NCBI GenBank assembly: GCA_004321715.1
Contig: SGYN01000008.1
Location: forward strand, 3,940 to 67,939
DNA: 64,000 bases
Source of the DNA: a bacterium
GTDB lineage: Bacteria; Fidelibacterota; Marinisomatia; Marinisomatales; TCS55
Reading direction: 5' to 3'
Part shown: in pieces, positions 3,274 through 38,761 of the stretch
Layout: each line of letters begins with the position of its first letter
Numbering within the stretch: the stretch's first letter is position 1
Made by a program: the position numbers and the translations under genes
Notes under the pieces: generated by a model
The model's database searches: none
What the model was told of the DNA's origin: nothing
Seen by the model: the letters and a program-made list of their open reading frames with translations, nothing else

Positions 3274-3282
3274 ATAATTACC

Positions 3283-7600: not shown

Positions 7601-7630
7601 ATGGAAAGATAAATATAAGATTGATAAAAT

Positions 7631-8614: not shown

Positions 8615-8714
8615 AAAGAATATGTAAAGTCAAGAATATCAAATTTAAAATTGTTATAAAAAGAACGTATATCCAAATATGAGATAAGCTTATAAATTAA
8701 AAATAATTTTAGTT

Positions 8715-9140: not shown

Positions 9141-9156
9141 AAACTTTTATTAATTA

Positions 9157-21699: not shown

Positions 21700-22710
21700 T
21701 TAACTACAAGTAGTTTCAATCAATATTGCACATACTTCATAGGGGTCCATATTAGCTGATGGTCTTCTATCTTCCAAATAACCTTTACCATCATTAGCTG
21801 TAGCCATTGGAATTCTTATTGAGGCACCACGATCGCTTACTCCATAGCGAAAATCTTTTATAGAGCATGTTTCATGCAATCCAGTAAGTCTTTCTTCGTT
21901 ATGTGCACCATACAAAGCTATATGATCTTCATGTTTTTTTCCTAAAGATTCACATGCAGCTTCAATCACTTTTATTCCACCTTCATTTCTCATAGACTTA
22001 GTACTAAAATTTGTATGCGCTCCCGCCCCATTCCAGTCTCCTTTTACTGGTTTTGGATGCAGGGTGGCACTGACACCATAATCCTCAGCAATTCGATATA
22101 ATAGCCAACGACTTATCCATAATTGGTCTGCTACGTCTAAAGGGCCTAAAGGACCAACTTGATATTCCCATTGACCAGGCATTACTTCTGCATTTATACC
22201 AGATATTTCCAAACCTGCATCAAGACAGAGTTCTAAGTGCTCTTCAACAATATCACGCCCATACACCTCATCAGCGCCAACCCCACAATAAAAGGGGCCC
22301 TGGGGCGCTGGATATCCACCTTCTGGCCAACCTAATGGAACTCTTCCTTGAAAGAATGTGTATTCTTGTTCTATACCAAACCAAGATTCTTGATCTTTAA
22401 ATTTTTCATCAACTTTCCTTAAATGAGCTCTTGTATTTGTTGAATGAACAGAACCATCTGCATTCATAACTTCACACATAACTAAAACATCATCACCTCC
22501 CCTAATTGGATCAGGAACATAGGATACAGGCTGCAACATACAGTCGCTGTCATTACCAGCTGCTTGATTAGTACTTGAACCATCAAATCCCCATAAAGGA
22601 AGATCGTTTATACTATTTAAGGGACCATCAAAAACTTTGGTTTTTGATCTAAGTTTTTGGGTTGGTTCATGCCCATCCATCCAAATATATTCAGCTTTAA
22701 TTTTACTCAC
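21700..22710 (-). CDS. glnII: glutamine synthetase type II (eukaryote-like GSII), GTG start
   Basis: 336 aa. MSKIKAEYIWMDG opening, GIEQEYTFF, GINAEVMPGQWEYQVGP, NGAGAHTNFS and EDRRPSANMDPY are GSII signatures. AAGGAG lies 8 nt before the GTG. Confidence 0.9.
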   Translation of the reverse strand: MSKIKAEYIWMDGHEPTQKLRSKTKVFDGPLNSINDLPLWGFDGSSTNQAAGNDSDCMLQPVSYVPDPIRGGDDVLVMCEVMNADGSVHSTNTRAHLRKVDEKFKDQESWFGIEQEYTFFQGRVPLGWPEGGYPAPQGPFYCGVGADEVYGRDIVEEHLELCLDAGLEISGINAEVMPGQWEYQVGPLGPLDVADQLWISRWLLYRIAEDYGVSATLHPKPVKGDWNGAGAHTNFSTKSMRNEGGIKVIEAACESLGKKHEDHIALYGAHNEERLTGLHETCSIKDFRYGVSDRGASIRIPMATANDGKGYLEDRRPSANMDPYEVCAILIETTCS

Positions 22711-25167: not shown

Positions 25168-25235
25168 TTATATTTTTTGATATTTATCAATAATTGTATC
25201 AAGTTTTGTTGGGTTTTATTGTAAAGCATGTGTTA

Positions 25236-25259
25236 ATATTCGACCCTTAGTCGAAATAT
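25236..25259. promoter_or_regulatory. candidate TetR operator (inverted repeat)
   Basis: ATATTCGAC-CCTTA-GTCGAAATAT with a perfect TTCGAC/GTCGAA core, ending 7 nt before the TetR start codon. Function is inferred from position only. Confidence 0.3.
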
Positions 25260-25265
25260 AAACTC

Positions 25266-25859
25266 ATGCTTTCAGAACGCCAAATAGAAGAACGAAAAAT
25301 TAGAAAGGAACGTATCCTTTCCAGTGCGCTTGATGTTTTTAAAGCAAATGGATTAGATGGGGCAACAATGGATTCCATTGCCGAAAAAGCAGGGTTTGGA
25401 AAAGCAACACTTTACTATTACTTCTCATCAAAAGAGGAGGTTTTCCTAGGTATTATGGAAGATGGGTGGAAAACCTTAATAGAAAGCTTAGAAATCATAA
25501 TTCAAGAAGAACAAAGTCCTAGAAAAACTTTTATTAAGATCTTGGTTCAGATTGCGCACAATGCAAAGCTTAGGCCGAACCTATATGAATTTCTTTTTCA
25601 AGCACCAAAAGTAATAAACCTTACTGACTTTAATGATCAGAATTGGAAAAAATACCAAGGTCAGCTTTACTCTATCCTAAGAGGTTTATTAGAAGATGGT
25701 ATAAAACTCAAAGAATTTCCAAAGCTAAATACTGATCTTATGTTTAAAGCCATTGGTGGTTTATTTACTGGTTTAATTTTCTTTGGTGATGATAAAAAGG
25801 GCTCTGTATCAGAAGATGAAGTAGAGGCACTATTAAATAATTTAATTAGTAAACAGTAA
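25266..25859 (+). CDS. TetR/AcrR-family transcriptional regulator
   Basis: HTH TMDSIAEKAGFGKATLYYYFSSKEEVF; 197 aa. Confidence 0.85.
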   Translation: MLSERQIEERKIRKERILSSALDVFKANGLDGATMDSIAEKAGFGKATLYYYFSSKEEVFLGIMEDGWKTLIESLEIIIQEEQSPRKTFIKILVQIAHNAKLRPNLYEFLFQAPKVINLTDFNDQNWKKYQGQLYSILRGLLEDGIKLKEFPKLNTDLMFKAIGGLFTGLIFFGDDKKGSVSEDEVEALLNNLISKQ

Positions 25860-25860
25860 G

Positions 25861-28038
25861 ATGATTATAAAGTATTTATGTTATTTATTATTGACATCTT
25901 TCCCAATTATTGGGGGAAGTATAAATGGTGTCGTATTTGATGAAATTGATAATTCTCCAATGATAGGTGCAAATGTATTATTAAGTGATCTTGAAATTGG
26001 TAGTTCAACAAATAGTAATGGTGAGTTTATTTTTTCAAATTTGAATGAAGGATCATACGATCTTCAAATTTCTTTAATTGGGTATGAAACATATTCAAAA
26101 TCGATTGTAATGAAAGAAAATGAAGATGTAAAATTAATTGTTTTTTTAAAAAGAGAGCCCATAATATGGGAAACAATAAATGTTGTGGGAATGTTTCCAT
26201 CAAAACATTCGCCTGAAATCACTCAAATCATTGATAACAAAATGTTATCACAAAAAAGTGTCTCCAGTATATCTGGATTGTTAAGATCAATGCATGGCAT
26301 CGATCTGCAGATGGCGCACGTACATGGTAGGAATGTGAATATATCAATTCGTGGTTCCTCAGATTATAAACCTGGTGGTTATAATAATAGGGTTCTTTTG
26401 CTTATTGATGGCTTTCCTGTATCAATACCAAATTCAGGAGCACCTGATTGGAATGCTATACCCTTAGAAAATATTGATCGTGTAGAAATTGTAAGAGGCC
26501 CCGCATCTTCTTTATATGGTCATAATTCTATGGGAGGTGTAGTTAATATGGTAACAAAGTCAAATACACCAAACAGATTACTGACGTATGATGCTGGAGT
26601 TGGAAGTTATAATAACAATATCCTGAATCTTAATTATAGTAGGGATATAAATAACATAAAAGTTTTTACTACTGCAGGTTATAATTATTCTACTGGTCAT
26701 AGATTTAATGCAAACCACAGTAATATTAGAGGATCATTCAAAATTAAGAATGTATCCAATAATCAAAAAAAATGGTCCTTATCTACCATTATTACAAAAT
26801 CTAATAATGGGCAACCTGGTTTTGTATATCCAGATAATCCGGGATTAATTTCATATAGAAAATCAGAAAGAATAAGTAGTTATATCCAATTATTTTATTC
26901 ATTACCAGTGTTTGATAATGGTTATTTATCTTCTTCACTTGGGCTAAATCAATTTTATACAATATATAATGATAGAAATGATACACCGATTGAAAAAGTC
27001 CAAGGACAAACAACATACGATGATCAAATGCTATTGCTTCGAAGTGAATACCAACATTTTTTTAATGATAAATCAATATTAACTGTTGGTACAGAATTTG
27101 GAAATGATCAGTCTAAAGCTGATGTAATAAATTCAATTTATACTCAACCTACCCAACGTACATTAGCATTATTTGGTCAATTGAAAAAAAATATAAGTAC
27201 ACTTTGGAAAATAGATGCTGGTATACGATATGATCATCGATGGGTAAGAGGTGGAAAAAATTATACAAAAAAAATATTTGAAGCTATTTCACCAAAGTTC
27301 AATCTTTATTTTCAATCCACTCCAACTAAGCAATATCACTTCTCAATAAATCGAGGATTTAGAGCTCCTTCCATATCAGAACTTTTTTTAGAACATGAAA
27401 GCAGCTATGGGCTACAATTCCGAGGAAACTCAACATTGCAACCAGAATATTTAACTGCGGCGGAGATTGGCTTCAAAAATCATGCCAACCAAAAGTATAC
27501 ATACTTCACAAATATATTTTATAATTATTATAATGATATGATTGATTTTGTTTATTCTATACCTGTAGAATCATTAAACCGAACAAATGTAAAAGGATAC
27601 GGTTTTGAACTGGGTGGAGATTTTTATCTGCCATTTAATATAGCAAGATTAGAATTAAGTTATTCATACTTAGATATGATTGATCTAAAGAATAAAGATT
27701 TACCAATTCTTTATAGATCAAATCATAAAATAAAAGGCTCTATCAGCAGGAAAATTTTTAATTTTACAAATATTTCTCTTTTATTTAATTATAAAAGCTC
27801 ACAAAAATATGAGGATTTCCTAAGTGATGATCATCCTGTCATTGATAATATATTTCGCTTCCCTATTGAAAATATACCGGAAACCATTCTTTTTGATTTA
27901 CAGCTTATAAAAAGAATTAATTCTTATAAGATAACGGGTATAATTAGAAATATTTTTGATACAGAATACGTGCTAATACAACACTATCCAATGCCTGGAA
28001 GAACCTGGCAAATAAATTTTTCAAAGCAATTAAACTAA
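25861..28038 (+). CDS. TonB-dependent receptor with CarboxypepD_reg-like N-domain
   Basis: INGVVFDEIDNSPMIGANVLL (CarboxypepD_reg-like). Plug motifs ISIRGSS, VLLLIDGFPV, VEIVRGPASSLYGHNSMGGVVNMVTKS. The start lies 1 nt after the TetR stop. Confidence 0.9.
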   Translation: MIIKYLCYLLLTSFPIIGGSINGVVFDEIDNSPMIGANVLLSDLEIGSSTNSNGEFIFSNLNEGSYDLQISLIGYETYSKSIVMKENEDVKLIVFLKREPIIWETINVVGMFPSKHSPEITQIIDNKMLSQKSVSSISGLLRSMHGIDLQMAHVHGRNVNISIRGSSDYKPGGYNNRVLLLIDGFPVSIPNSGAPDWNAIPLENIDRVEIVRGPASSLYGHNSMGGVVNMVTKSNTPNRLLTYDAGVGSYNNNILNLNYSRDINNIKVFTTAGYNYSTGHRFNANHSNIRGSFKIKNVSNNQKKWSLSTIITKSNNGQPGFVYPDNPGLISYRKSERISSYIQLFYSLPVFDNGYLSSSLGLNQFYTIYNDRNDTPIEKVQGQTTYDDQMLLLRSEYQHFFNDKSILTVGTEFGNDQSKADVINSIYTQPTQRTLALFGQLKKNISTLWKIDAGIRYDHRWVRGGKNYTKKIFEAISPKFNLYFQSTPTKQYHFSINRGFRAPSISELFLEHESSYGLQFRGNSTLQPEYLTAAEIGFKNHANQKYTYFTNIFYNYYNDMIDFVYSIPVESLNRTNVKGYGFELGGDFYLPFNIARLELSYSYLDMIDLKNKDLPILYRSNHKIKGSISRKIFNFTNISLLFNYKSSQKYEDFLSDDHPVIDNIFRFPIENIPETILFDLQLIKRINSYKITGIIRNIFDTEYVLIQHYPMPGRTWQINFSKQLN

Positions 28039-28061
28039 CTTGATAAAGGAACCGATAAACA

Positions 28062-28481
28062 ATGAATAAATTGTTTTTAAGACTACTGTGCACATTAGTA
28101 CTTATAATAACTATAGGTTGTGAAGATAACGACGCAAATAATGAAGTAATACTAGCCGAATCTGGATCAATATATGGTAAAATAACTTTCAGTGGAGCTT
28201 GGCCAGATACTGGAACAGTACTACTTACGTTAAACACAACATATCCACCACAAGGTCCTCCTGCAGGTTTTCAATACCTATCATTAGAAACGGTAGTAGA
28301 TAATGAATACACATATTCATTTAGTAACCTTTCATTTACAAACTATGAAGCGGTATCTATTACACACTGGCCAGATGATTATCCAAATGGATCCTATAGC
28401 ACTTTGGGAGGTCATTTTGAAGATATGCTAATCACTCAAGAAAGCCCAGAAACAGAAATAAATTTTAACGCTGATTTTTAA
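28062..28481 (+). CDS. small lipoprotein, function unknown (beta-sandwich-like)
   Basis: Lipobox ITIGC. GSIYGKITFSG is reminiscent of a carboxypeptidase-regulatory-like fold. 139 aa. Confidence 0.55.
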   Translation: MNKLFLRLLCTLVLIITIGCEDNDANNEVILAESGSIYGKITFSGAWPDTGTVLLTLNTTYPPQGPPAGFQYLSLETVVDNEYTYSFSNLSFTNYEAVSITHWPDDYPNGSYSTLGGHFEDMLITQESPETEINFNADF

Positions 28482-28624
28482 ATATGTTAAAATAAAAGCT
28501 TTTTACGCTTTTATAGTCTTGATTTTTATATAAAAAGGATTATTTTTGTCCATATTTTTGCTTTAAATATCTCATAGAAGTAAATTACCTGAATCCGAGA
28601 AAAATATATTAGGGGTAATTAACT

Positions 28625-30715
28625 ATGAATAAATTAAAATTAAATATTTTATATGCTTTCCTTTTATTAGTAAATATAAATCTTACTGCTAGTGATAATG
28701 ATAGTTTATATTTTCAATTTGAGCCTGATTCCGTCAATTTAGAAATTGGAGATTCTATCAAAATTAAAGTATCACTACTAAAAAAAGATGGTTCTTTATC
28801 AAAAAATCAATTTCTTTTAACAGGAGAATGGAGATCTGTTGAAGTAAAGCCTTGGATCAGTAATTCAGATGGTATAGCTAATGTCCAATTAAAAGTGTTT
28901 AAACCTGGGTCATTTAATCTGAATGCATCCAGTATTACAGATGATCGATTTAAAAGAGTTCGTGGTAATTTATCAATTTTTGTACCTGCGCCTCCAATTG
29001 AAAAAGTTGGTTTTATAGATCCACCAAGCACTGCATATGAAAAAACAAGAATAAAGTTTTTGGCTAAAGTTTTAGATAAAGCTGGTGTATCAAGAAATGA
29101 TATTAAGCCAACTTTTGAGTCATCAAATAATTCAATAGCTAGCTTTGATGACTTTGGAAACCTCTCAATCAAACAAAGAGGTAGAGTTCAACTTAGTGTT
29201 TCTATAAGTAATCAAAGAAATAAAGTAATCTTTTCGGAAATAAATCTGCGTATCTTTAGAAATCCAGTAAGAAAGATTGAACTATCAATGAATGAAGGTT
29301 CATATCGTACAGGAGATGTGATCACTTTTAATGCACTAGCAAAAACTGCTTCTGGTAAAGAAATAACAGATGTTCCTATTGAATTTTCATTTACAGGGGA
29401 AGCAAATTATGGCATAGGTCTACCAGCAAGTGGCGTAGTTACACCTAATGGTAAATTTGTTGCTGAAAATCCTGGAGAATATACTATTTATGCAACTTCA
29501 AGTGGGTATACTTCATCACTTACTGTAAAAATAAAGCCTAGAAATATTCAAAAACGTGCAGAACTAATTGGACATGGGCTAATTACAGATGTTTTTACAT
29601 CTGATTTATGGGTATGGCAAGGTGTTGATGAATTTAGTGATAGAGATTTTGCTGTAACTGGAACTTGGGAAGCAAATGGAGAGGCTTATTTTTGGGAAGT
29701 TACAGATCCATCAAATTTAGTTATAATCGATACTGTAACAGTAGATGCGCGGACAGTAAATGATGTAAAAGTTTCTGCAGATGGACGGATAGGAGTTATA
29801 ACTAGAGAAGGTGCTTCAAGTAGAAAGAATGGTGTAGTAATTCTGGACGTAAGTGATCCATACAATGTAAAAATATTATCAGAATTTAATGATGGCCTTA
29901 CTGGAGGTGTTCATAATGCTTTTATTTATGAAAACCATGTATTTGCGGTTAATAATGGACGGAAATATGATATTATAAATATTTCTGATCCCACTAAACC
30001 GTGGCGTGTCAATAGTTATGAATTAAATACTCCCGGTCATAGTATTCATGATGTGTGGATTGAAAATGGAATCGCATATTCATCTAATTGGAGCGATGGA
30101 GTTCATGTTGTAGATATTGGAGGACTACAATTTTCGGAAGAAAATAGATATACCATTATGAATAATCCAATTTTACAATCAGCTGGAAAAGGAAGTGTAA
30201 GGAGCCCTGTATTAATGACATCAAAACATGATACTACAGGAAGAAACCATGCTGCCTTCCCCTTTTTAAGTGAATCTACAGGAAGTTTTTATGTAATCGC
30301 AGGTGATGAACATTTTCCCTTTGGTTTAGGAGAGATTCAAAATAAAGAGCCTGCAAATCCCAGAGGCGGTTATCATTTTTTAAATATGAATGACTATAAA
30401 AATCCTGTTGAAGAAGCAATTTACCAAGTTCCAGAAGCTGGATCGCACAATTTATGGGTTCAGGGTGACACCTTGTATACTGCATTTTATCAAGGTGGAT
30501 TACGAGTTGTTGATATATCAGGAGAGCTACTTGGCGATCTGTATAAACAAGGAAGAGAAATAGCTTTTTATTTATCTAATCATCCTGAGGGCCGCATTCC
30601 AAATGCAACAATGGTTTGGGGACCACAACCTTATAAAAGTTATATCTTTTTTGCTGATATGAATAGTGGACTGTATGCAGTAAAGCTAGTGAATTTTGAA
30701 GATAATGAAGATTAG
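28625..30715 (+). CDS. secreted protein: N-terminal bacterial Ig-like (Big_2-type) repeats + C-terminal LVIVD-repeat beta-propeller
   Basis: Signal peptide. Repeated V.P....L..G-type Ig-like segments in the N-terminal ~300 aa. LVIVD-type repeats GVVILDVSDP, YDIINISDP, GVHVVDIGG, GLRVVDISG, GLYAVKLV. Confidence 0.65.
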   Translation: MNKLKLNILYAFLLLVNINLTASDNDSLYFQFEPDSVNLEIGDSIKIKVSLLKKDGSLSKNQFLLTGEWRSVEVKPWISNSDGIANVQLKVFKPGSFNLNASSITDDRFKRVRGNLSIFVPAPPIEKVGFIDPPSTAYEKTRIKFLAKVLDKAGVSRNDIKPTFESSNNSIASFDDFGNLSIKQRGRVQLSVSISNQRNKVIFSEINLRIFRNPVRKIELSMNEGSYRTGDVITFNALAKTASGKEITDVPIEFSFTGEANYGIGLPASGVVTPNGKFVAENPGEYTIYATSSGYTSSLTVKIKPRNIQKRAELIGHGLITDVFTSDLWVWQGVDEFSDRDFAVTGTWEANGEAYFWEVTDPSNLVIIDTVTVDARTVNDVKVSADGRIGVITREGASSRKNGVVILDVSDPYNVKILSEFNDGLTGGVHNAFIYENHVFAVNNGRKYDIINISDPTKPWRVNSYELNTPGHSIHDVWIENGIAYSSNWSDGVHVVDIGGLQFSEENRYTIMNNPILQSAGKGSVRSPVLMTSKHDTTGRNHAAFPFLSESTGSFYVIAGDEHFPFGLGEIQNKEPANPRGGYHFLNMNDYKNPVEEAIYQVPEAGSHNLWVQGDTLYTAFYQGGLRVVDISGELLGDLYKQGREIAFYLSNHPEGRIPNATMVWGPQPYKSYIFFADMNSGLYAVKLVNFEDNED

Positions 30716-30726
30716 TTTATTTAAAC

Positions 30727-31821
30727 ATGCTGATTTTTAGAATACTACTAGCTGTAATAATATTATTAGGTACAATAAAAGGAAGAGAATATTTTGTTTA
30801 TGTAACATCTGAATCTCAAGATGAAGTGCATCTAATTAAGTTTGATGGAAATAATGGGAAAATAATAAAAGATATTCCTGTAGGCGTATGGCCTTTAGAA
30901 ATTGAAGGTCCACATGGAATTACGGTATCACCAAATGGAAAATACTGGTATTTGTCATTAGCGCATGGCTTTCCATATGGACATGTTTATAAATATGAAA
31001 CAGGAACGGATAAGCTTATTGATCGTGTGGAGTTGGGCTTATTTCCAGCTACAATGCAAATCTCAAATGCAACAGGTCTTCTGTATGTAGTAAATTTTAA
31101 TCTTCATGGTGAACACGAACCTAGTACCATATCTATTGTTGATCCTGAGGAAATGATTGAAGTAAATCGAATTGAAACTGGTATCATGCCTCACGGTTCA
31201 AGAATAACTAATGATGGATTAAAACAATATTCAGTAGCAATGATGTCAGGAACTTTATATGAACTTGATGTCCTCCAATTTGAAATAAGTAGAACCTTAT
31301 TTACTGGGACTAGTAAACATAAGCACATGACGCATTCAATAGGTTCCATGAAACATAGAAATATGAAATCACATAAAATGCCAAAAGAAAAACCAACATG
31401 GGTATACCCACATCCAAACGATAAATATTTATATGTAGTAAATAATGGTATAGATAATGTTGTTGAAATTGATTTAAATAAGTGGGCTATTTCAAGAAAA
31501 TTCAATACCGATAAAGGTCCATATAATTGTGAAGTTAGTCTAAATGGAAAATATTTAGTTATTACATATAAATCAGCAGGAAAAACAGGTGTTTGGGATT
31601 TAAAATCAGGAATTGAATTAGCACGGATTAAAAACACAAGAAGAGTTACCCATGGAGTAGTGATATCTCCTGATAGTAAATATGCATTTGTTTCTGTTGA
31701 AGGTATTCGTGGAGAACCAGGCTCTGTTGATATTATAGATTTAGAAAACCTTATTTTAGTTGACCATATTGAAGTTGGTAAACAAGCCGGCGGAATAGCT
31801 TTTTGGAAAATGTCTGATTAA
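30727..31821 (+). CDS. secreted YVTN/YncE-type beta-propeller protein with a His/Met/Lys-rich insert
   Basis: Signal peptide. Blade motifs PHGITVSPNGKYWYLS, MPHGSRITNDGLKQY, GPYNCEVSLNGKYLVIT, THGVVISPDSKYAFVS. Insert SKHKHMTHSIGSMKHRNMKSHKMPKEKP. Confidence 0.65.
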   Translation: MLIFRILLAVIILLGTIKGREYFVYVTSESQDEVHLIKFDGNNGKIIKDIPVGVWPLEIEGPHGITVSPNGKYWYLSLAHGFPYGHVYKYETGTDKLIDRVELGLFPATMQISNATGLLYVVNFNLHGEHEPSTISIVDPEEMIEVNRIETGIMPHGSRITNDGLKQYSVAMMSGTLYELDVLQFEISRTLFTGTSKHKHMTHSIGSMKHRNMKSHKMPKEKPTWVYPHPNDKYLYVVNNGIDNVVEIDLNKWAISRKFNTDKGPYNCEVSLNGKYLVITYKSAGKTGVWDLKSGIELARIKNTRRVTHGVVISPDSKYAFVSVEGIRGEPGSVDIIDLENLILVDHIEVGKQAGGIAFWKMSD

Positions 31822-31824
31822 CTC

Positions 31825-32304
31825 TTACTGATTACGATATTTTTTTCTCCAATAAAATAATATTATTATTCCAATGATATTTGGGAACCATATAAATGGA
31901 TTGCTCCACGGAATTCCATCAAAATAAAAATCTGAGAAAGGGTAAAAAAGCTTGGTTGGAAAATATTCTTTTGAATGAAAAGGAAAATCCAACAAAATAT
32001 GAAACGGCCAGCCTAGCATTGCAAATGCATAATTTTTATTAAAGTAGTAGACAATTGCTATTATCGAAAAGGCGGTTACATAACTATGGAAAATATTATA
32101 GGATAAAAAAACCCAATCTGGTAGTGTATCTAAAGGAGGTGGTCCCCCTCCAAATTCAGGAATATTCCCGGTAATTATATTCACAATTATTAATGCGCCA
32201 AAAGATGCTAAATCTGGCATTGCTCCAAAAAACAAAGCAATCCAAGGCATACCTCGATAACCGAATAATCCTTTTCCCCATAGTGCATGACTTAATGTAT
32301 CCAT
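31825..32304 (-). CDS. membrane-bound metal-dependent hydrolase-like protein (DUF457/YdjM-like)
   Basis: MDTLSHALWG opening, four hydrophobic helices, HILLDFPFH His cluster. Tentative. Confidence 0.5.
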   Translation of the reverse strand: MDTLSHALWGKGLFGYRGMPWIALFFGAMPDLASFGALIIVNIITGNIPEFGGGPPPLDTLPDWVFLSYNIFHSYVTAFSIIAIVYYFNKNYAFAMLGWPFHILLDFPFHSKEYFPTKLFYPFSDFYFDGIPWSNPFIWFPNIIGIIILFYWRKKYRNQ

Positions 32305-32403
32305 TATAATATTTGATCAATTAATAGAATAGTTCATAAAGAAGTATAGTTAAATTTACAATATGGGAAGTAAAAATTAATTTTAATTGTTTAATCATTA
32401 TCA

Positions 32404-33285
32404 GTGAATAAAATAAAATGTAATTCGATGGTTGATCCATTGCGCAGGGTAATTATGAAAAGCCCCAATTTAGCATGGAAAAATACAAACAATATAAAGA
32501 AGTATTGGAAAGATTTGCATTTTACATCAGAGCCTAAATTTGATAAAGCAGTTTTTCAATACAATAAACTAATCGCTCTTATCGAATCATTTGGTATTGA
32601 AATACTAATGCTACCAAAAGATGATCAAACAGATCTAGACTCTATATATACCCATGATGCGGGTATTGCTACATCAAGAGGAATTGTAATTTGCAATATG
32701 GGTAAAAAGACAAGAAAGAATGAAACAAAAGCACTAAAGAGTTTTCTGACTCAGAATAATATATCAATAATTGGAGAAATAAAATATCCGGGAATCATTG
32801 AAGGCGGAGATGTTATTTGGATAAATGAACATACAATTGCAGTTGGTGAGGGATATAGAACAAATAAAGAAGGAATAGAGCAGTTGAAGGAGATACTTGG
32901 TGCCGAGGTAGATCATATAATATCAGTACCCCTCCCCCATTACCTTGGTCCTGAAAATTGCCTACACCTAATGAGTAATGTGAGTCCAATTGATCAAAAT
33001 CTTTTTTTAATTTATCCAAAACTATTACCTGCAAAATTTATAGAGTTTTTAAAAAGTGTAAATATTAAACTAATCAATGTGCCCGATGAAGAATACGAAT
33101 CAATGGCATGCAATGTATTATCATTAGCTCCAAAAAAATGCATTATGATGTCAGGCAATCCCATTACAAAATTACTATTAGAATCAAATAATGTAGAGGT
33201 TTTCACCTATGATGGATCAGAAATTTCATTGAAAGGTGCAGGAGGACCAACCTGCTTAACAAGACCTATATATCGCCAAAGATAA
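32404..33285 (+). CDS. guanidino-group-modifying enzyme, dimethylarginine dimethylaminohydrolase/arginine deiminase-like
   Basis: C-terminal nucleophile motif LKGAGGPTCLTRPI. IEGGDVIW. About 290 aa, typical of DDAH-like proteins. The start is uncertain (GTG 32404, ATG 32428 or ATG 32455). Confidence 0.6.
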   Translation: MNKIKCNSMVDPLRRVIMKSPNLAWKNTNNIKKYWKDLHFTSEPKFDKAVFQYNKLIALIESFGIEILMLPKDDQTDLDSIYTHDAGIATSRGIVICNMGKKTRKNETKALKSFLTQNNISIIGEIKYPGIIEGGDVIWINEHTIAVGEGYRTNKEGIEQLKEILGAEVDHIISVPLPHYLGPENCLHLMSNVSPIDQNLFLIYPKLLPAKFIEFLKSVNIKLINVPDEEYESMACNVLSLAPKKCIMMSGNPITKLLLESNNVEVFTYDGSEISLKGAGGPTCLTRPIYRQR

Positions 33286-33286
33286 A

Positions 33287-34516
33287 ATGCCATATAAAAA
33301 TAATTTTACTGCGCAGACTCAATTAAAATTATCTCCTTTCTTTGAGCGAACTTCTAAACTAAATGAATCCCAAGAATGGCGTAGATGGGCTGGATACCTT
33401 GCTGCAACAAGCTATGAATTGACTCATGAAAATGAGTACTTTGCAATTAGAACAAAAGCAGGCCTCTTAGATATAACACCATTAAAGAAATACATAGTGG
33501 AAGGACCCGAATCAGAGAAATTATTAAATCAATTAGTAACACGTAATATTGCTATTTGTAAAGTAGGGCAAGTTATGTATACGCCTTGGTGTGATGAAGA
33601 TGGTAAAGTTATCGATGATGGAACAATACAGAGACTCTCCAAAGATAAATTTCGAATTACAAGTGCAGAACCAAATCTGGAATGGATTCAAAGTAATGCG
33701 ATAGGAATGGATGTAAATGTTAAGGATGATTCATTCTCAACAGCAGCTCTAGCTCTACAAGGCCCTAATTCTCGCGCAATTCTTAATTCTATCTCGACTA
33801 ATAATTTGGATAAACTAAGGTTTTTTTGGATGATGGAAACAACCTTTGGTAATATTCCCGTATCTATTTCACGAACTGGATATACTGGTGATTTAGGATA
33901 TGAAATATGGATCAATCCAAATGATGCATTGAAAGTTTGGGATCTATTAATGGATAAAGGGAAATCTTTTGGTATTACGCCTACCGGGCTTCATGCATTG
34001 GATATTGCAAGAATAGAAGCAGGATTGATTCTTTTAGATGTCGACTATATATCATCAAGACATGCTCTAATAGAATCTCGAAAATCATCACCATATGAAT
34101 TAGGATTAGGCTGGGCAGTCAAAATGAATAAGAATGATTTCATTGGTAAATCATCATTGCAAAAAGAATTAAATCATGCGTCCAACTGGAGTTTTGTAGG
34201 TGTTGAAATAGAATGGCTAGAATTTGAAAAACACTACAGAGAAGTGGGCCTAGCTCCAGGATTACCACAAACAGCATGGAGAACAAGCACTCCATTATAT
34301 TATAAAAATGAACAAATAGGGTATGCTACAAGCGGTACATGGTCACCTCTTCTGAAGCGCTATATTGCTTTAGCCCATCTAAAATCTACCTATGCTCAAA
34401 AAGGATCCAAATTAATGTTCGAATTAAAAGTCGAACATTTTCGAAAACTTACAAAAGCTACTGTAGTTAAAACTCCTTTTTATAATCCCGAAAGAAAACG
34501 ATCATGTCCAAAATAA
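33287..34516 (+). CDS. GcvT-family aminomethyltransferase (folate-dependent)
   Basis: YFAIRTKAGLLDITPLKKYIVEGPESEKLL, VIDDGTIQRLSKDKFRITS, RTGYTGDLGYEIW: GcvT N- and C-domain motifs. Confidence 0.8.
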   Translation: MPYKNNFTAQTQLKLSPFFERTSKLNESQEWRRWAGYLAATSYELTHENEYFAIRTKAGLLDITPLKKYIVEGPESEKLLNQLVTRNIAICKVGQVMYTPWCDEDGKVIDDGTIQRLSKDKFRITSAEPNLEWIQSNAIGMDVNVKDDSFSTAALALQGPNSRAILNSISTNNLDKLRFFWMMETTFGNIPVSISRTGYTGDLGYEIWINPNDALKVWDLLMDKGKSFGITPTGLHALDIARIEAGLILLDVDYISSRHALIESRKSSPYELGLGWAVKMNKNDFIGKSSLQKELNHASNWSFVGVEIEWLEFEKHYREVGLAPGLPQTAWRTSTPLYYKNEQIGYATSGTWSPLLKRYIALAHLKSTYAQKGSKLMFELKVEHFRKLTKATVVKTPFYNPERKRSCPK

Positions 34517-36084
34517 ATAAATATGATGCAATAATAATTGGTGGTGGTCATAATGGGCTTACGGCTGCTGCTTACTTGGGTCGATCCGGCAAAAAAGTTC
34601 TAGTACTTGAAAGAAGACACGTGCTTGGTGGTGCTGCAGTTACAGAAGAAGTTTACCCAGGATTTAAGTTTTCAGTATGCTCTTATGTTGTCAGTTTAAT
34701 GAAGTCCAATGTTATGCGTGAATTGATGTTACCAAAGTTTGGACTGGAGCTTCTTCCTCTCGAAAGCACAATGACTCCATTAGAAAATGATTATCTTATT
34801 CGAACAGCTGATTCCGATCAAACATACCGTGAAATAGCGCGTCATTCAAAAAAAGATGCAGAAAATTATATGCGATTTGGACCTGCCATGGGACAAATTG
34901 GTATGGCTGTCAGACCCATACTTGAAACAATTGCTCCTAATCCAATTCGACCATCATTATCAGATCTTTCTGCAACGAAAAAATTGTTAGATCATGTTAA
35001 ATCACTAACATCAAAACAGTTTGAATATTTAACAAAACTTATGACAATGAGTTCAGCAGATTTTTTAGATGAATGGTTTGAGTACGAACCATTAAAAGCA
35101 ACAATGTCAGCAAGTGGAATTATTGGTACGTTTATGGGTCCCCGCTCGCCAGGATCTGCTTATGTAATGCTCCATCACTATATGGGAGATATTGATGGTG
35201 CTTATAGGGCATGGGGTTTTCAACGTGGTGGTACGGGTGGTGTAAGTATGGCAATTGCCAGATCTGCAGAACATTTTGGTGTTGATATAATGACAGAAAT
35301 GTCTGTCCAAAAAGTTATTGTTAAGAATGGTCGTGCTATCGGTGTTGCTTTAGATAATGGCGATGAATATAATTCAAGTATAGTTATTTCTGCACTAGAT
35401 CCAAAACTTACTTTTCTAAATATGATTGATGAATCAGAACTCCCACCGGATTTTGTTTCCGCAATCAAGAATTTTCGAATCCGAGGATCTTCTGGGAAAG
35501 TAAATTTAGCTCTTGATGCGCTGCCTGATTTCTCGTGCCTCCCCGGTGATGGGCGCCATTTGCGTGGCGCAATTTCAATTAGTCCATCGTATGATCATTT
35601 GGAAAAAGCATATGATGATGCAAAGTATGGTAATTTTTCAGAAGCGCCATTTATGGATATCATACTTCCTTCTGTTTTGGACCCTGATATGGCTCCACCA
35701 GGTAAGCATGTTATGTCATGTTTTGTTCAATATGCACCATACCATATTAACGGAGGTTGGAATGATCAAAAAAGAGAGGATTTTGGGGACGCGGTGATTA
35801 ATACGATTTCAAGATATGCACCAAATATCAAAGATATTATCTTGCATCGCCAAGTACTAACACCTGCAGACCTAGAATCAACATTTGGTTTAACCGAAGG
35901 GAATATTTTTCATGGCGAACTAACTCTTCAACAATTATTCTCGCTGAGACCTGCGGTGAAATGGGCTGATTATACTACACCAATCAAAAATTATTTCCAA
36001 TGTGGTTCAGGAACACACCCTGGGGGCGGCATTACAGGATCTCCAGGTGAAATGGCTGCAAAAAAGATTTTAGGATCTTGGTAA
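34504..36084 (+). CDS. FAD-dependent oxidoreductase, phytoene-desaturase-related (COG1233 / PYROXD2-like), copy 1
   Basis: YDAIIIGGGHNGLTAAAYLGRSGKKVLVLERRHVLGGAAVTEE dinucleotide-binding motif. C-terminal CGSGTHPGGGITG. Overlaps the upstream gene by 13 nt. Confidence 0.8.
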   Translation: MSKINKYDAIIIGGGHNGLTAAAYLGRSGKKVLVLERRHVLGGAAVTEEVYPGFKFSVCSYVVSLMKSNVMRELMLPKFGLELLPLESTMTPLENDYLIRTADSDQTYREIARHSKKDAENYMRFGPAMGQIGMAVRPILETIAPNPIRPSLSDLSATKKLLDHVKSLTSKQFEYLTKLMTMSSADFLDEWFEYEPLKATMSASGIIGTFMGPRSPGSAYVMLHHYMGDIDGAYRAWGFQRGGTGGVSMAIARSAEHFGVDIMTEMSVQKVIVKNGRAIGVALDNGDEYNSSIVISALDPKLTFLNMIDESELPPDFVSAIKNFRIRGSSGKVNLALDALPDFSCLPGDGRHLRGAISISPSYDHLEKAYDDAKYGNFSEAPFMDIILPSVLDPDMAPPGKHVMSCFVQYAPYHINGGWNDQKREDFGDAVINTISRYAPNIKDIILHRQVLTPADLESTFGLTEGNIFHGELTLQQLFSLRPAVKWADYTTPIKNYFQCGSGTHPGGGITGSPGEMAAKKILGSW

Positions 36085-37649
36085 TGAAAACTTATGATGT
36101 AATTGTAATTGGTGCTGGTATAAATGGATTAGTTACTGCATCTATTTTAGGAAAGAAAGGAAAGCGTGTCCTCATTTTAGAATCAAGAGATAAAATTGGT
36201 GGTATAGCTTCCTCAATGGAATTTACTCCTGGATTTACATGTAATGTCGTTCATGATACTATTAAATGGATAGATCCTCGCTTAATGAAGATATTAGATT
36301 TAGATACTAATGGTTTGCAATTAGTAGAACCTGAAATACTTAGAGTTAATCTTGGAGATAATAGTGAGCATATTACGTTCTATAGAGATATAGATAAAAC
36401 TATCAATTCAATTGCAAAATATTCTAAAAAGGATTCTAAAAGATGGGAAGATTTTATCTCTTATATAAAAAAATTATCTCAGTTTTTAGAAAAACTTTAT
36501 GAGTTACCCCCCCCCGTTTTACCAAATTTAGGAATAAAAGAAGTTTTAGGAATGCGATCCTTATTATCCCCAATTAGGAAACATGGATCTCAAGGTGTTG
36601 TGGATCTATTACGTGTTGCCCCAATGATGATGCCTGAATTAGCTGATGAATGGTTTGAAAATGAATTACTCCGAAGCTGTATATCCACTGCTGGGATACA
36701 CCATCTATCATTTGGTCCTTATGCGGCAGGAACAGGATATAATCTTTTACATCAACATGTCCATAGCAATGGATTATTCCATAATATTAAATTTGTAAAA
36801 GGAGGAATAGAACAATTTGCTACAGTTTTAAAAGAAGTTGCTGAAAGATTTAATGTAGAAATTCAAACATCTGCAAAAGTTATATCAATAAATACTGATC
36901 AAAATGTATGTAATGGTGTTACGCTTGAAAGTGGAAAGAAAATTACGGCAAAACAAATTGTCTCTGCATTAGATCCTAATAATACATTTTTTAATCTGGT
37001 TGGTCCATCAAACTTAACCCCAGACTTTAGAACGCAGATAAATAATATTAGATATCGTGGAAGCACAGCGCGAGTACATTTTGCTTTAAATAAGCTGCCA
37101 GTAGTTAAAGGTGTTAATAATGAACATTTAAAAACAGTTTTTTCAATCAGTCCATCAATAGAATATTTGGAGCGCGCTTCTGATGCTGCAAAATATGGTC
37201 AAATTCCTGATAATCCTTACATAGAGTTTGTAATACCATCCTTATTAGAATCAAATTTTGCCCCGAAAGATAAACATGTTCTTTCGGCAACAATACAATA
37301 TGCTCCATATCATTTAAGAGATACTGAATGGTCTGACAGTATAAAAGATCAATTAAAGAATAATATTGTAGACACATTAGAAAAAGTGATCCCAAATATT
37401 AGATCAATCATTAAACACACTTACATTTTATCACCATTAGATTTAGAAAATGAATTTGGAATAACTGAGGGGAATTTGAATCATGGTGAAATGACACTAG
37501 ATCAGTTTATGTTTATGCGTCCAACTATAAGTTCATCCCAATATAGAACCCCAATCAATAATTTATTTATATGTGGTCCAGGAACACATCCAGGTGGTGG
37601 ACTTCATGGTACAAATGGATATAATGCAGCTATGGAGATATTAAAATAA
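36084..37649 (+). CDS. FAD-dependent oxidoreductase, phytoene-desaturase-related (PYROXD2-like), copy 2
   Basis: YDVIVIGAGINGLVTASILGKKGKRVLILESRDKIGG and C-terminal CGPGTHPGGGLHG. I prefer ATG 36084 (TAATG overlap with the upstream stop) over the ORF-track TTG at 36078. Confidence 0.8.
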   Translation: MKTYDVIVIGAGINGLVTASILGKKGKRVLILESRDKIGGIASSMEFTPGFTCNVVHDTIKWIDPRLMKILDLDTNGLQLVEPEILRVNLGDNSEHITFYRDIDKTINSIAKYSKKDSKRWEDFISYIKKLSQFLEKLYELPPPVLPNLGIKEVLGMRSLLSPIRKHGSQGVVDLLRVAPMMMPELADEWFENELLRSCISTAGIHHLSFGPYAAGTGYNLLHQHVHSNGLFHNIKFVKGGIEQFATVLKEVAERFNVEIQTSAKVISINTDQNVCNGVTLESGKKITAKQIVSALDPNNTFFNLVGPSNLTPDFRTQINNIRYRGSTARVHFALNKLPVVKGVNNEHLKTVFSISPSIEYLERASDAAKYGQIPDNPYIEFVIPSLLESNFAPKDKHVLSATIQYAPYHLRDTEWSDSIKDQLKNNIVDTLEKVIPNIRSIIKHTYILSPLDLENEFGITEGNLNHGEMTLDQFMFMRPTISSSQYRTPINNLFICGPGTHPGGGLHGTNGYNAAMEILK

Positions 37650-38761
37650 TGAAATTTCATAAGACTGCTGAGACGCTAACAAAAGGTGCCAAAACTCTGC
37701 CACAAAAATTTTATACACAATCTGAAATTCTAAATCAAGAATATAAAAAGATATTTCATAATAATTGGATTTGTATTGGTAGAGATTCTGATTTAATAAA
37801 TAAGGGTCAGTATATTACTATTCAGCTTGGTAGTGAAAGTGTGATTGTATTAAAGTCTGAAAAAGATAAAATAAAGGCATTTTTTAATGTTTGTCGTCAT
37901 AGAGGAACTAGAATATGCAATCAAAGTAAAGGGAGTTTTTCTAAGACAATTCAGTGTCCTTACCATGGATGGACTTATGATTTAAATGGAAAGTTAGTTG
38001 GTTCTCCTCATATGGATACAGTTAATGATTTTAATAAAATCAATTACCCATTATTTCCTATTGAAACAAAAGAATGGAAAGGATTTCTATTTATTAATCT
38101 TAGCGAAACCCCTGAAAATTTTAATGAGATATTTAAACCAATAGATAACCTATTGGATTCTTGGGAGCTACATAAGCTTCGCATTGTAGAGCAAAAGAGA
38201 TATACTGTTAATTGTAATTGGAAATTAATTATTCAAAATTATTGTGAGTGTTATCATTGCCCAATGATACACCCCCAACTCGCAGAAATTCATAATTATT
38301 TAGGAGGGGAAAATAATTTATATTCAGGTCCCTTCCTTGGTGGATACATGAATTTCAACTCCGATAAAGAAAGTATAACTCCTAGCGGAAAATATTGTTG
38401 TCCTCCTATTAAAAGTGTTAAAGGACAAGATTTACATCGAGTATATTATTACTCATTATTCCCAAATATGTTATTGAGCCTTCATCCAGAATATGTTATG
38501 TATCATACAGTTTGGCCAAGAGGTACTGATAAATGTACAGTGAACTGTTCTTGGTTATTTTTAGATCAAAGTACTAAAAGTCATAAAAAGTCTATATATG
38601 AATCCATAGACTTTTGGGATAAAACCAATAAGCAAGATTGGAATATATGCGAATATTCTCAATTAGGAATTAATTCCAAAAAATATTCTCCAGCCCCTTA
38701 CTCTGGACAAGAAAGTCTGTTAGCTGCATATGATGAATATTATCTAGATCAAATGGATTAA
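37649..38761 (+). CDS. Rieske [2Fe-2S] non-haem-iron oxygenase alpha subunit (choline-monooxygenase/GbcA/Stc2-like class)
   Basis: Rieske motif CRHRGTRICN...CPYHGWTY. Mononuclear-iron region NWKLIIQNYCECYHCPMIHPQL. TAATG overlap with the upstream gene. Confidence 0.85.
   Translation: MKFHKTAETLTKGAKTLPQKFYTQSEILNQEYKKIFHNNWICIGRDSDLINKGQYITIQLGSESVIVLKSEKDKIKAFFNVCRHRGTRICNQSKGSFSKTIQCPYHGWTYDLNGKLVGSPHMDTVNDFNKINYPLFPIETKEWKGFLFINLSETPENFNEIFKPIDNLLDSWELHKLRIVEQKRYTVNCNWKLIIQNYCECYHCPMIHPQLAEIHNYLGGENNLYSGPFLGGYMNFNSDKESITPSGKYCCPPIKSVKGQDLHRVYYYSLFPNMLLSLHPEYVMYHTVWPRGTDKCTVNCSWLFLDQSTKSHKKSIYESIDFWDKTNKQDWNICEYSQLGINSKKYSPAPYSGQESLLAAYDEYYLDQMD

Follow-up and report, generated by a model that had tools for sequence, protein, structure and literature searches.

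A Marinimicrobia operon with a PYROXD2-type flavoprotein suggests a folate-linked pathway of oxidative N-demethylation

Which reaction would require a DDAH-like hydrolase, a GcvT-like folate protein, two related flavoproteins and a Rieske oxygenase to be encoded side by side in one marine bacterium? The question also concerns PYROXD2, a conserved mitochondrial flavoprotein whose human locus shows one of the strongest metabolite associations known, with methyl-lysines, TMA and DMA. Loss of PYROXD2 leads to infantile mitochondrial disease, and its function is still described as unknown in publications as late as 2026. An earlier note on this DNA had proposed catabolism of an N-methylated amine or guanidino compound, with methyl groups salvaged as methylene-THF. 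Genomic context and homology support this proposal, while the activity and the substrate are those that we infer. We assign a probability of about 0.6 to the reading that the operon serves folate-linked oxidative N-demethylation of an N-methylated nitrogen compound, with the C1 units passed to tetrahydrofolate; methylated lysine and arginine are the substrates that we favour.

A compact operon and its five products

The window, i.e., the whole stretch of DNA analysed, comprises 64 kb from a Marinimicrobia (SAR406) bacterium, and its numbering is used throughout. The operon extends from 32428 (or 32404) to 38761 (Table 1). The five same-strand genes with gaps and overlaps described earlier were borne out by a base-by-base check of reading frames and junctions. 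There is a 1-nt gap between genes 1 and 2 (TAA at 33283-33285, ATG at 33287), a 13-nt overlap between genes 2 and 3 (ATG 34504 ahead of TAA 34514-34516), and a TAATG overlap both between genes 3 and 4 (36082-36086) and between genes 4 and 5 (37647-37651). The start of gene 4 at ATG 36084 likewise stands, TTG 36078 being an artefact of an ORF lister that takes the first start codon. The length of 293 aa previously given for gene 1 is reached only from GTG 32404; the start is probably ATG 32428, since most homologues are called at 285 aa. Junctions of at most 1 nt are common in this compact genome (7 of the 29 other same-strand junctions in the window, counted by hand), thus four tight junctions in a row, with a probability of about 0.003 if independent, are only moderately unusual, and conservation in other clades is the stronger evidence for an operon.

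Table 1. Features of the operon and its 5' flank (positions in the 64-kb window)
Feature	Position	Strand	Length, domain matches and remarks
5' intergenic region	32305..32427	+	AT-rich; downstream of a divergent 159-aa gene, 31825-32304 (-)
DDAH-like guanidino-group hydrolase	32428..33285	+	285 aa (293 aa if GTG 32404); PF02274 6.7e-28, PF19420 7.6e-19
GcvT-like folate-binding aminomethyltransferase-family protein, putative C1 acceptor subunit	33287..34516	+	409 aa; PF01571 1.9e-63, PF08669
FlvA, PYROXD2-type FAD flavoprotein, putative catalytic amine dehydrogenase/oxidase	34504..36084	+	526 aa; PF01593, NAD_binding_8
FlvB, divergent FlvA paralogue, putative partner subunit or second demethylase	36084..37649	+	521 aa; FAD motifs intact
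Rieske non-haem-iron oxygenase alpha subunit, GbcA/Stc2/CntA group	37649..38761	+	370 aa; PF00355, PF00848

No promoter was identified for the operon: sigma-70 and terminator signals were no more numerous than in shuffled sequence. No Rfam match indicated a riboswitch at its 5' end even at E<=1. In agreement with the earlier description, no reductase, transporter or regulator is encoded inside the operon, and no FNR- or ferredoxin-type gene was detected in the entire 64 kb when every ORF of 130 aa or more was scanned with Pfam and the 50-134-aa ORFs were scanned for Cys motifs.

The five family assignments were upheld by the domain matches in Table 1, with the CrtI-family domain PF01593 present in both flavoproteins. 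The hydrolase has a DDAH-length fold according to its PF19420 match (residues 29-289 against model positions 8-290 of 291), and its best PDB match is the P. aeruginosa DDAH 3rhy (E 5e-20). Its Cys-His-Glu triad is intact, with Cys284, His188 and Glu133 aligned to what we take to be C249, H162 and E114 in the numbering of the P. aeruginosa enzyme, and Asp85, Arg104 and Arg152 correspond to the amino-acid-binding D66, R85 and R132. The NCBIfam equivalog cut-offs for DDAH were not reached (89.2 versus 450 bits for NF045658, 86.5 versus 340 for NF045660). Because arginine deiminase models score the protein equally to DDAH models, its sequence places it in a separate subfamily of the guanidino-modifying superfamily.

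In the GcvT-like protein both the folate-binding domain and the C-terminal barrel are present, and within NCBIfam it matches the C-terminal half of TMAO demethylase best (283 bits, cut-off 1100). The curated GcvT cut-offs were not reached (232.7 versus 300 for PRK00389, 183.3 versus 235.85 for TIGR00528), and among PDB entries the folate domain of TMAO demethylase 9q59 (187 bits) ranks above Thermotoga GcvT (163 bits), followed by DMG oxidase. Neither gcvH nor gcvP occurs in the window; the partners of the GcvT-like gene are FlvA and FlvB. Stand-alone proteins of the GcvT family, such as DmdA and LigM, can themselves be methyltransferases, and therefore the flavoproteins might do something other than demethylation.

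Both flavoproteins had been taken as PYROXD2 homologues. They are indeed CrtI-family paralogues, but only FlvA is of the PYROXD2 type, and the two are not equivalent. FlvA is 42% identical to oyster PYROXD2 over the full length (E 1e-145) and clusters with animal PYROXD2 against FlvB in 30/30 neighbour-joining bootstraps. FlvB, with 36% identity to FlvA and 32% to PYROXD2, lies outside this clade and lacks invariant residues common to its members. The mean pairwise identity of orthologues across phyla is 67% for FlvA and only 44% for FlvB. The AF2 model of FlvA (pLDDT 88.8) is closest in fold to CrtD and CrtI, with NicA2, putrescine oxidase and MAO, all flavin amine oxidases, next in line.

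The Rieske protein contains the motifs C82-x-H84 and C103-x-x-H106, the bridging E200 and the iron ligands H203 and H208, with D330 as a candidate only for the Asp ligand. Its nearest PDB entries are 3n0q, Stc2 (3vca) and CntA (6y8j), with E between 1e-40 and 1e-46, and its best NCBIfam match is GbcA at 238.9 bits, short of the cut-off of 670. A GbcB- or CntB-type reductase was found neither in the operon, nor in the window, nor in related operons.

A three-gene core across bacterial phyla

The same five genes with overlapping junctions, set in different flanks, recur in two further Marinimicrobia clades, making three clades in total. We surveyed the neighbourhoods of 80 FlvA loci, 74 of them informative for the GcvT-like gene and 51 with full flanks. 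They represent eight or more phyla, among them Gemmatimonadota, Acidobacteriota, Chloroflexota, Actinomycetota, Planctomycetota, Bacteroidota and, from the proteobacteria, Alphaproteobacteria. A GcvT-like homologue lies beside FlvA in 69 of the 74 loci, 59 times within 500 nt, and FlvB directly follows FlvA in 61 of 69 loci. The conserved core is three genes: GcvT-like, FlvA and FlvB. A Rieske oxygenase accompanies this module in about a quarter of the loci and is absent from 36 of the 51 with full flanks; orthologues of 33-46% identity adjoin it in 15/80 loci from several phyla, and in Fuscovulum ytuae Rieske oxygenases belong to the same overlapping operon. The DDAH-like gene neighbours the module only in Marinimicrobia (0/51 full-flank loci outside this group). 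It is a lineage-specific addition outside the widespread module, and its coupling to demethylation is therefore lineage-specific.

The remaining neighbours point to amino compounds and C1 metabolism. PurU adjoins the module in 9 loci and APC amino-acid permeases occur in 22, while cultured Alphaproteobacteria have polyamine- and amino-acid-type ABC transporters, BetI-type TetR regulators, class-III transaminases and aldehyde dehydrogenases close by. One metagenomic protein, a single sequence, carries a glutathione-dependent formaldehyde-activating (GFA) domain fused to a PYROXD2-like domain. The neighbourhoods vary by taxon, with P5C dehydrogenase, GntE-like transaminase, BKACE or CoA ligases, and therefore the substrate is probably not the same in all taxa. 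No characterised pathway that matches the cluster was found in the literature, and all NCBIfam matches lie far below the equivalog cut-offs. No paper was found that gives PYROXD2 an activity or describes the GcvT-FlvA-FlvB module, and the function of the FlvA/PYROXD2 clade, which has no member with demonstrated activity, is argued from context and homology.

The earlier note had mentioned a GWAS link between PYROXD2 and methylated amines, which proved to be real and stronger than stated. According to the literature, human PYROXD2 variants drive the levels of N6-methyllysine, N6,N6-dimethyllysine, N-methylpipecolate, TMA and DMA. Urinary TMA and plasma DMA both show association with the locus, the correlation with expression being negative (PMC3169529), and one missense SNP accounts for ~50% of the variance of plasma N6-methyllysine and ~48% of that of N6,N6-dimethyllysine (PMC8109053).

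Proposed pathway and competing explanations

We hypothesize that the operon performs stepwise oxidative demethylation for catabolism or salvage, in which the C1 units would pass to tetrahydrofolate; we put forward all of the individual reactions, as well as their substrate and electron acceptor, as predictions. FlvA, the bacterial counterpart of animal PYROXD2, would use its FAD to oxidise the C-N bond in secondary or tertiary N-methyl amines, and FlvB could be its partner or the handler of a second methylation state. The GcvT-like protein would bind tetrahydrofolate and capture the iminium or formaldehyde as 5,10-methylene-THF, a role modelled on the domains of dimethylglycine dehydrogenase, sarcosine oxidase and TMAO demethylase. 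The link to C1 metabolism draws on the PurU neighbours, the kinship of the GcvT-like protein to the folate domain of TMAO demethylase and the one GFA fusion. A quaternary trimethyl-ammonium group is not open to attack by flavin amine oxidases, so that its first methyl calls for an iron oxygenase. The Rieske oxygenase could take this methyl off a quaternary nitrogen, beyond the reach of flavin oxidation, as its group (GbcA, Stc2, CntA) acts on quaternary ammonium compounds. The DDAH-like hydrolase would act on an arginine derivative and cleave its methylated guanidino group. As substrates of the pathway we favour free N6-mono-, di- and trimethyl-lysine and methylarginines from proteolysis.

The GbcA match of the Rieske protein invites a different explanation, i.e., degradation of a betaine osmolyte such as glycine betaine, which is abundant in seawater. 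The Rieske enzyme would form dimethylglycine, FlvB/FlvA with the GcvT-like protein would replace dimethylglycine and sarcosine dehydrogenases on the way to glycine, and the hydrolase would be an unrelated arginine-type step. Three oxidative enzymes would fit three methyl groups, BetI-type TetR regulators flank the Kiloniella module, and a threonine-aldolase-like gene and PurU neighbour the module in some loci. We nevertheless consider this unlikely, as the Rieske protein remains at 239 bits against the 670-bit GbcA cut-off, a DDAH-like gene that is translationally coupled and conserved in three clades is left unexplained, and human genetics leads to methyl-lysines, not to dimethylglycine or sarcosine. 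Moreover, the transporters nearby are of amino-acid and polyamine types, with no BCCT or betaine ABC transporter among them. Small methylamines are another candidate: the DDAH-like enzyme, first in the operon and with its triad intact, would free DMA or methylamine from methylarginines, and FlvB/FlvA with the GcvT-like protein would take DMA to MMA and ammonia, so that N and C1 are assimilated. The association of human PYROXD2 with plasma DMA and urinary TMA, negatively correlated with expression (PMC3169529), would agree with this, as would the closeness of the GcvT-like protein to that of TMAO demethylase, an enzyme making DMA. We would be surprised if it held, however, given that the module occurs widely with no DDAH-like gene beside it, the usual neighbours (amino-acid/polyamine transporters, transaminases, aldehyde dehydrogenases) are not needed for small methylamines, the strongest human signals are methyl-lysines, and the Rieske enzyme has no clear role.

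The flavoproteins could also act as the reductase system that the Rieske oxygenase lacks, and the oxygenase alone would release formaldehyde for capture by the GcvT-like protein. No conventional reductase accompanies the Rieske gene in the Marinimicrobia, Gemmatimonadota, Bacteroidota and Fuscovulum operons, and the FlvB and Rieske genes overlap. Yet the 36 of 51 full-flank GcvT-FlvA-FlvB loci without a Rieske gene, the presence of PYROXD2 in animals that have no such partner, and the modelled FlvA fold, which is of the amine-oxidase/CrtI type and not of the ferredoxin reductase type, make this very unlikely. Hardly credible is a role as carotenoid or lipid desaturases with a functionally meaningless adjacency of the GcvT-like and Rieske genes. 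The best NCBIfam matches of the flavoproteins are CrtO and the CrtI family, and their nearest solved structures are carotenoid desaturases (CrtD-like, CrtI), not amine oxidases, but the scores are far under the cut-offs (CrtO 328 and 242 versus 1000 bits; crtI_fam 105 and 127 versus 238), no carotenoid (crt) genes were found by the Pfam scan of ORFs in the 64-kb window, and the GcvT-like adjacency holds in 69/74 loci from at least eight phyla.

Folate-linked N-demethylation may have a further twist. FlvA, FlvB, the GcvT-like protein and the Rieske oxygenase might form one self-sufficient complex, in which flavoprotein electrons from the second and third N-methyls would feed the Rieske centre and cover the cost of taking off the first, quaternary methyl by oxygenolysis, with no need for an NAD(P)H reductase. 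This would explain the missing reductase gene in the operons that combine the module with a Rieske oxygenase (Marinimicrobia, Gemmatimonadota, Bacteroidota, Fuscovulum), and would make the PYROXD2 family a group of amine dehydrogenases with protein partners as electron acceptors, although we regard it as a decidedly long shot.

The conserved core offers the PYROXD2 family, whose human member is an orphan enzyme, a first biochemical role that can be put to the test. Its bacterial context, i.e., the near-obligatory pairing with a GcvT-like protein, PurU, amine and amino-acid transporters and a betaine-type Rieske oxygenase, points to oxidative N-demethylation, which is directly testable. Cultured bacteria with the module include Fuscovulum, Shinella, Parasedimentitalea and Kiloniella. 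In the ocean, the operon suggests a route by which the abundant uncultured Marinimicrobia could recover N and C1 from methylated amino compounds in sinking organic matter.

Comparison with known systems

P. aeruginosa DDAH (PDB 1h70/3rhy) is the best structural-sequence match of the hydrolase and shares its triad and Asp/Arg/Arg residues, but the operon's protein has 89 bits against the equivalog cut-off of 450 and ties with arginine deiminase models. GbcA, Stc2 and CntA are the nearest PDB and NCBIfam relatives of the Rieske protein and have the Rieske motifs, bridging Glu and two His iron ligands in common with it; it differs in its 239 bits against the 670-bit GbcA cut-off, in having no adjacent GbcB-/CntB-type reductase and in a catalytic domain that aligns poorly to CntA. 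The proposed division of chemical labour is the same as between the flavin (LSD1) and oxygenase (JmjC) lysine demethylases, an analogy only, as these are unrelated proteins that act on histones.

Animal PYROXD2 forms a monophyletic group with FlvA, with 42% identity and shared invariant residues, but is single-copy, has an N-terminal extension and has no adjacent GcvT-like partner, whereas in bacteria FlvB and a GcvT-like protein usually accompany it. This GcvT-like protein has its closest relative in the TMAO demethylase Tdm (PDB 9q59; eLife 2026, PMC13619132; 283 bits in NCBIfam, 187 bits in PDB), whose GcvT-like domain, according to that article, channels formaldehyde to folate. The catalytic N-terminal domain of Tdm is absent here, and only residues 385-760 of the 763-position model were matched. 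The proposed logic of flavin N-methyl oxidation with folate C1 capture by a GcvT-like protein is that of DMGDH/DMG oxidase, sarcosine dehydrogenase and SoxBDAG, whose domains the operon's GcvT-like protein matches (1pj5 with 131 bits, SoxA, DMGDH), and PurU is a neighbour as in sox operons. Their flavoproteins are DAO-type, whereas those of the operon are two paralogues of the CrtI/PYROXD2 type (PF01593), and its folate protein is a separate polypeptide. If our reading is true, this would be a third flavoprotein architecture among the known folate-linked demethylases.

Organisation and surroundings of the operon

The sequence under study (G+C about 32%) encodes proteins whose nearest homologues, at 84-99% identity, are labelled Marinimicrobia (SAR406/Neomarinimicrobiota), and proteins with T9SS tails and TonB receptors are encoded around the operon locus. 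As the earlier note described, five ORFs on one strand occupy positions 32404-38761; only the beginning of the span needs revision, the likelier start of gene 1 being the ATG at 32428, because its homologues are mostly 285 aa long. The four tight junctions that the note listed were each borne out on reading the sequence (Table), as was the start of gene 4 at ATG 36084. Taken as the sign of an operon, this run is only moderately unusual, since tight junctions are frequent in the genome (by hand count, 7 of the 29 other same-strand junctions are ≤1 nt), but conservation bears the operon out: the same five genes with overlapping junctions, and with different flanks, occur in two further Marinimicrobia clades. 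The identity of these operons to the window is uneven between genes.

Positions of the operon genes and of other features (window coordinates unless a locus is named; identity is that of other Marinimicrobia operons to the window)
Feature	Position	Strand	Junction with next gene, or detail	Identity
Gene 1, DDAH-like	32428-33285	+	TAA 33283-85, ATG 33287; gap of 1 nt	54-58%
Gene 2, GcvT-like	33287-34516	+	ATG 34504 ahead of TAA 34514-16; overlap of 13 nt	76%
Gene 3, FlvA (PYROXD2-type flavoprotein)	34504-36084	+	TAATG 36082-86	86%
Gene 4, FlvB (FlvA paralogue)	36084-37649	+	TAATG 37647-51	60%
Gene 5, Rieske oxygenase alpha subunit	37649-38761	+		58%
HNH endonuclease gene	3283-3822	-	stand-alone	
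Cobalamin riboswitch	4751-4877	+	RF00174, 63 bits	
ORF 3' of the riboswitch	4965-5960	+	331 aa, no Pfam match	
GAPDH-like ORFs	18368-20244	-	tandem pair	
Upstream GAPDH-like ORF	19369-20244		291 aa	
Glutamine-synthetase-like ORF	21700-22710	-	336 aa; Gln-synt_N and partial catalytic domain	
Lrp/AsnC regulator	22737-23192			
Gene run upstream of the operon	23419-31821	+	opens with amidohydrolase_3 gene (582 aa)	
Marinimicrobia locus L086, class-III transaminase	2927-4234	-	544 bits	
Marinimicrobia locus L086, PlsC-like acyltransferase	8671-9987	+	438 aa, PF01553	
Kiloniella laminariae locus L078, class-III transaminase	6696-8009	+	446 bits	
Kiloniella laminariae locus L078, phthalate-dioxygenase-reductase-like protein	16328-17284	+	NAD_binding_1 and Fer2	

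A consensus scan returned promoter and terminator sites no more numerous than in shuffled sequence, and such a scan is uninformative for this AT-rich FCB-group genome; the Rfam search found no riboswitch at the operon. The operon contains no regulator, as had been claimed, and a TetR gene lies 6.5 kb upstream, preceding a TonB receptor. Both belong to the same-strand run just upstream, which continues with a 139-aa ORF and with genes for an LVIVD-repeat and a beta-propeller protein, and is a possible uptake locus; its position beside the operon is not conserved among the other Marinimicrobia clades examined. There, the operon is in some cases accompanied by an amino-acid permease, an ArgE/DapE-type deacylase and a PLP decarboxylase, and in an alternative setting directly follows a BhcB-like dehydratase and a PlsC-like acyltransferase, whose gene, on the same strand, stops 13 nt short of the DDAH-like gene in L086.

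Elsewhere in the window, a cobalamin riboswitch lies directly 5' of an ORF that may encode an uncharacterised B12-uptake or B12-related protein. The upstream member of the GAPDH-like pair is without most of the N-terminal NAD-binding domain, perhaps because it is a truncated copy or because the gene carries a frameshift. Short glutamine-synthetase-like proteins include amine-ligating enzymes, and the ORF of this type, beside the Lrp/AsnC regulator, may be relevant to amine metabolism. The HNH endonuclease gene is flanked by genes for an NlpC/P60 peptidase and a tryptophanyl/tyrosyl-tRNA synthetase-family protein.

Protein families and the relationship of FlvA to PYROXD2

FlvA and FlvB are flavoproteins of the CrtI/amine-oxidase superfamily with a mutual identity of 36%; their scores against CrtO and CrtI lie far under the cut-offs. 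The best 120 matches of both protein searches were near-identical Marinimicrobia sequences only, and diversity was therefore taken from a search of 1.84 billion representative proteins and from a genome scan. The former placed animal PYROXD2 among the nearest relatives of FlvA, the oyster protein aligning with FlvA over its full length at 42% identity (E 1e-145) and with FlvB at 32%. In an alignment of 59 FlvA, 59 FlvB and five eukaryotic sequences, mean pairwise identity was 67% among FlvA and 44% among FlvB orthologues, and residues invariant in FlvA were common to PYROXD2 and absent from FlvB (e.g., S60, Y61, H224, H225, W237 and N467-I468-F469). The neighbour-joining tree separated FlvA, single-copy bacterial forms and PYROXD2 from FlvB in 30/30 bootstraps. 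We found no solved structure of a close relative of either flavoprotein; the confident AlphaFold model of FlvA (pLDDT 88.8) is nearest in fold to a CrtD-like desaturase (TM 0.77-0.82), then to CrtI, followed by the flavin amine oxidases/dehydrogenases NicA2, 6-hydroxynicotine oxidase, putrescine oxidase and MAO. Among longer PYROXD2-like proteins, P0154 carries no extra recognisable domain, and in the metagenomic P0176 (816 aa, one Logan contig) a GFA domain (PF04828) is fused to the flavoprotein. GFA is the glutathione-dependent formaldehyde-activating enzyme; as a singleton, the fusion lends weak support to the proposed demethylation with C1 transfer.

Gene 2 has both GcvT domains and fails both GcvT cut-offs. 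Its highest-scoring match is the folate domain at the C-terminus of TMAO demethylase (NCBIfam 283 bits; PDB 9q59 187 bits); a true GcvT (163 bits) ranks lower, as do the folate domains of dimethylglycine oxidase, sarcosine oxidase and DMGDH. The product of gene 1 matches PF02274 and PF19420 and aligns most closely with P. aeruginosa DDAH (E 5e-20), on whose Cys-His-Glu catalytic triad its Cys284, His188 and Glu133 fall. Its Asp85, Arg104 and Arg152 match DDAH residues which we take to hold the amino-acid moiety. The protein scores far under every NCBIfam equivalog cut-off and arginine deiminase models score equally, and we therefore regard it as a separate subfamily. Gene 5 retains the Rieske motifs, the bridging Glu and two His ligands of an oxygenase alpha subunit; it is most closely related to 3n0q, stachydrine demethylase Stc2, carnitine monooxygenase CntA and GbcA, with none of these matches reaching equivalog level. 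A reductase for the Rieske protein, which the earlier note stated to be lacking in the operon, is encoded neither in the 64-kb window nor in the corresponding operons from other phyla; its gene may be unlinked, or the flavoproteins may supply the electrons.

Recurrence of the module across phyla

The scan of one genome per species yielded 80 loci with FlvA at 46-90% identity from Gemmatimonadota, Acidobacteriota, Chloroflexota, Actinomycetota, Planctomycetota, Bacteroidota, Alphaproteobacteria and others. Neighbours were counted by tblastn with the five window proteins, because naive ORF calling in high-GC loci gave spurious clusters of antisense ORFs (c4 and c7). Of the 74 informative loci, 69 have a GcvT-like gene (≤500 nt away in 59), the second paralogue lies directly downstream of FlvA in 61/69, and a Rieske gene (≥33% identity) occurs in 15/80, with a more distant Rieske type in seven loci. 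The order GcvT-FlvA-FlvB-Rieske of the window is also found in Gemmatimonadota and one Roseivirgaceae genome, and the most distant loci have GcvT and FlvA without FlvB. The five-family synteny thus recurs as a whole within Marinimicrobia and as the GcvT-FlvA-FlvB core in other phyla. By tblastn, the DDAH-like gene was found in none of the 51 full-flank loci outside Marinimicrobia; it is translationally coupled to the operon and kept with it in three Marinimicrobia clades.

Genes found repeatedly beside the module encode APC amino-acid permeases (in 22 loci), the formyl-THF deformylase PurU (in 9) and P5C/glutamate-semialdehyde dehydrogenase (in 6), as well as class-III transaminases, an S58 peptidase and a threonine-aldolase-like protein. 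Two of the transaminases (Table) reach or approach the 525 bits that NCBIfam sets as equivalog cut-off for GntE of guanitoxin synthesis, and a GntG-family aldolase adjoins the module in a Pyrinomonadaceae locus. We did not accept these NCBIfam labels as evidence of guanitoxin chemistry; the proteins probably represent a transaminase/aldolase family acting on amino-aldehyde intermediates, not toxin synthesis.

Tblastn of plasmids and chromids found cultured carriers among the Alphaproteobacteria, in which a TetR gene is always beside the module. In Fuscovulum ytuae YMD61 a TetR gene precedes transaminase-FlvA-FlvB-GcvT-Rieske-Rieske-polyamine ABC transporter, and junctions overlap. TetR, FlvA, FlvB and GcvT also occur in Parasedimentitalea marina W43, Shinella zoogloeoides ATCC 19623 and Rhizobium sp. 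SL42, near transaminases, ABC transporters and one to three Rieske alpha subunits. In Kiloniella laminariae DSM 19542 the additional genes encode a BetI-type TetR, a Pot-type ABC transporter, an aldehyde dehydrogenase, an ADP-forming CoA ligase and, within the FlvA-FlvB-GcvT cluster, a PDR-like reductase; no Rieske oxygenase gene was found there within 19.6 kb. A Shinella sumterensis plasmid carries one FlvA and one GcvT gene within a carnitine-like cluster (BKACE, 3-hydroxyacyl-CoA dehydrogenase). A Sphingobium homologue (about 41% identity) without a GcvT neighbour marks the edge of the module, so not all COG1233/PYROXD2-like proteins belong to it.

Proposed folate-linked N-demethylation and its candidate substrates

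These data point to a module that oxidises N-methyl groups and passes the C1 unit on to tetrahydrofolate. We infer this activity mainly from the fact that a PYROXD2-type flavoprotein almost always occurs together with a folate-binding GcvT-family protein, and also from PurU, the transporters for amines and amino acids, the transaminases and the betaine-type Rieske oxygenases. The interpretation agrees with the earlier proposal of N-methyl-amine or guanidino catabolism with folate C1 salvage. A quaternary nitrogen is not oxidisable by a flavin, and removal of the first methyl group from a trimethylammonium compound would be expected to fall to a Rieske oxygenase of the GbcA/Stc2/CntA group; the DDAH-like enzyme would add cleavage of a (methyl)guanidino group on an arginine-type amino acid. 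The oxidative enzymes differ in number by locus (FlvA alone, FlvA and FlvB, or both with Rieske), a pattern compatible with a heteromeric FlvA-FlvB enzyme and equally with a separate enzyme for each methylation state.

[quoted passage not shown] The missense SNP rs2147896 accounts for about 50% of the variance of plasma N6-methyllysine and 48% of that of N6,N6-dimethyllysine (PMC8109053), and is also linked to N-methylpipecolate, N2-acetyl-N6-methyl-lysines and trimethyllysine (PMC8109053; PMC9730628; PMC13352909). Rat kidney was described in 1963-64 to demethylate free epsilon-N-methyl-lysine to lysine and formaldehyde (PMC3936616), and papers of 2022 and 2026 still give the function of PYROXD2 as unknown. 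The literature outside subscription journals yielded no PYROXD2 activity, no account of the bacterial module, no study of these five genes in Marinimicrobia and no characterised pathway that matches.

Free methylated lysines and arginines are the substrates that we favour, on the grounds of human genetics, of the amino-acid permeases and the ArgE/DapE-type deacylase encoded nearby, and of the arginine-type binding residues of gene 1. Live rivals are a glycine-betaine-type route and a route from ADMA via DMA and MMA. To judge from the neighbourhoods in other taxa, the methylated amine on which the module acts probably varies between organisms. The module opens an orphan human enzyme family to direct testing. 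By its predicted activity, the system is a variant of the folate-linked oxidative N-demethylases: it follows the same demethylation logic as DMGDH, sarcosine oxidase and Tdm, but on a different flavoprotein scaffold.
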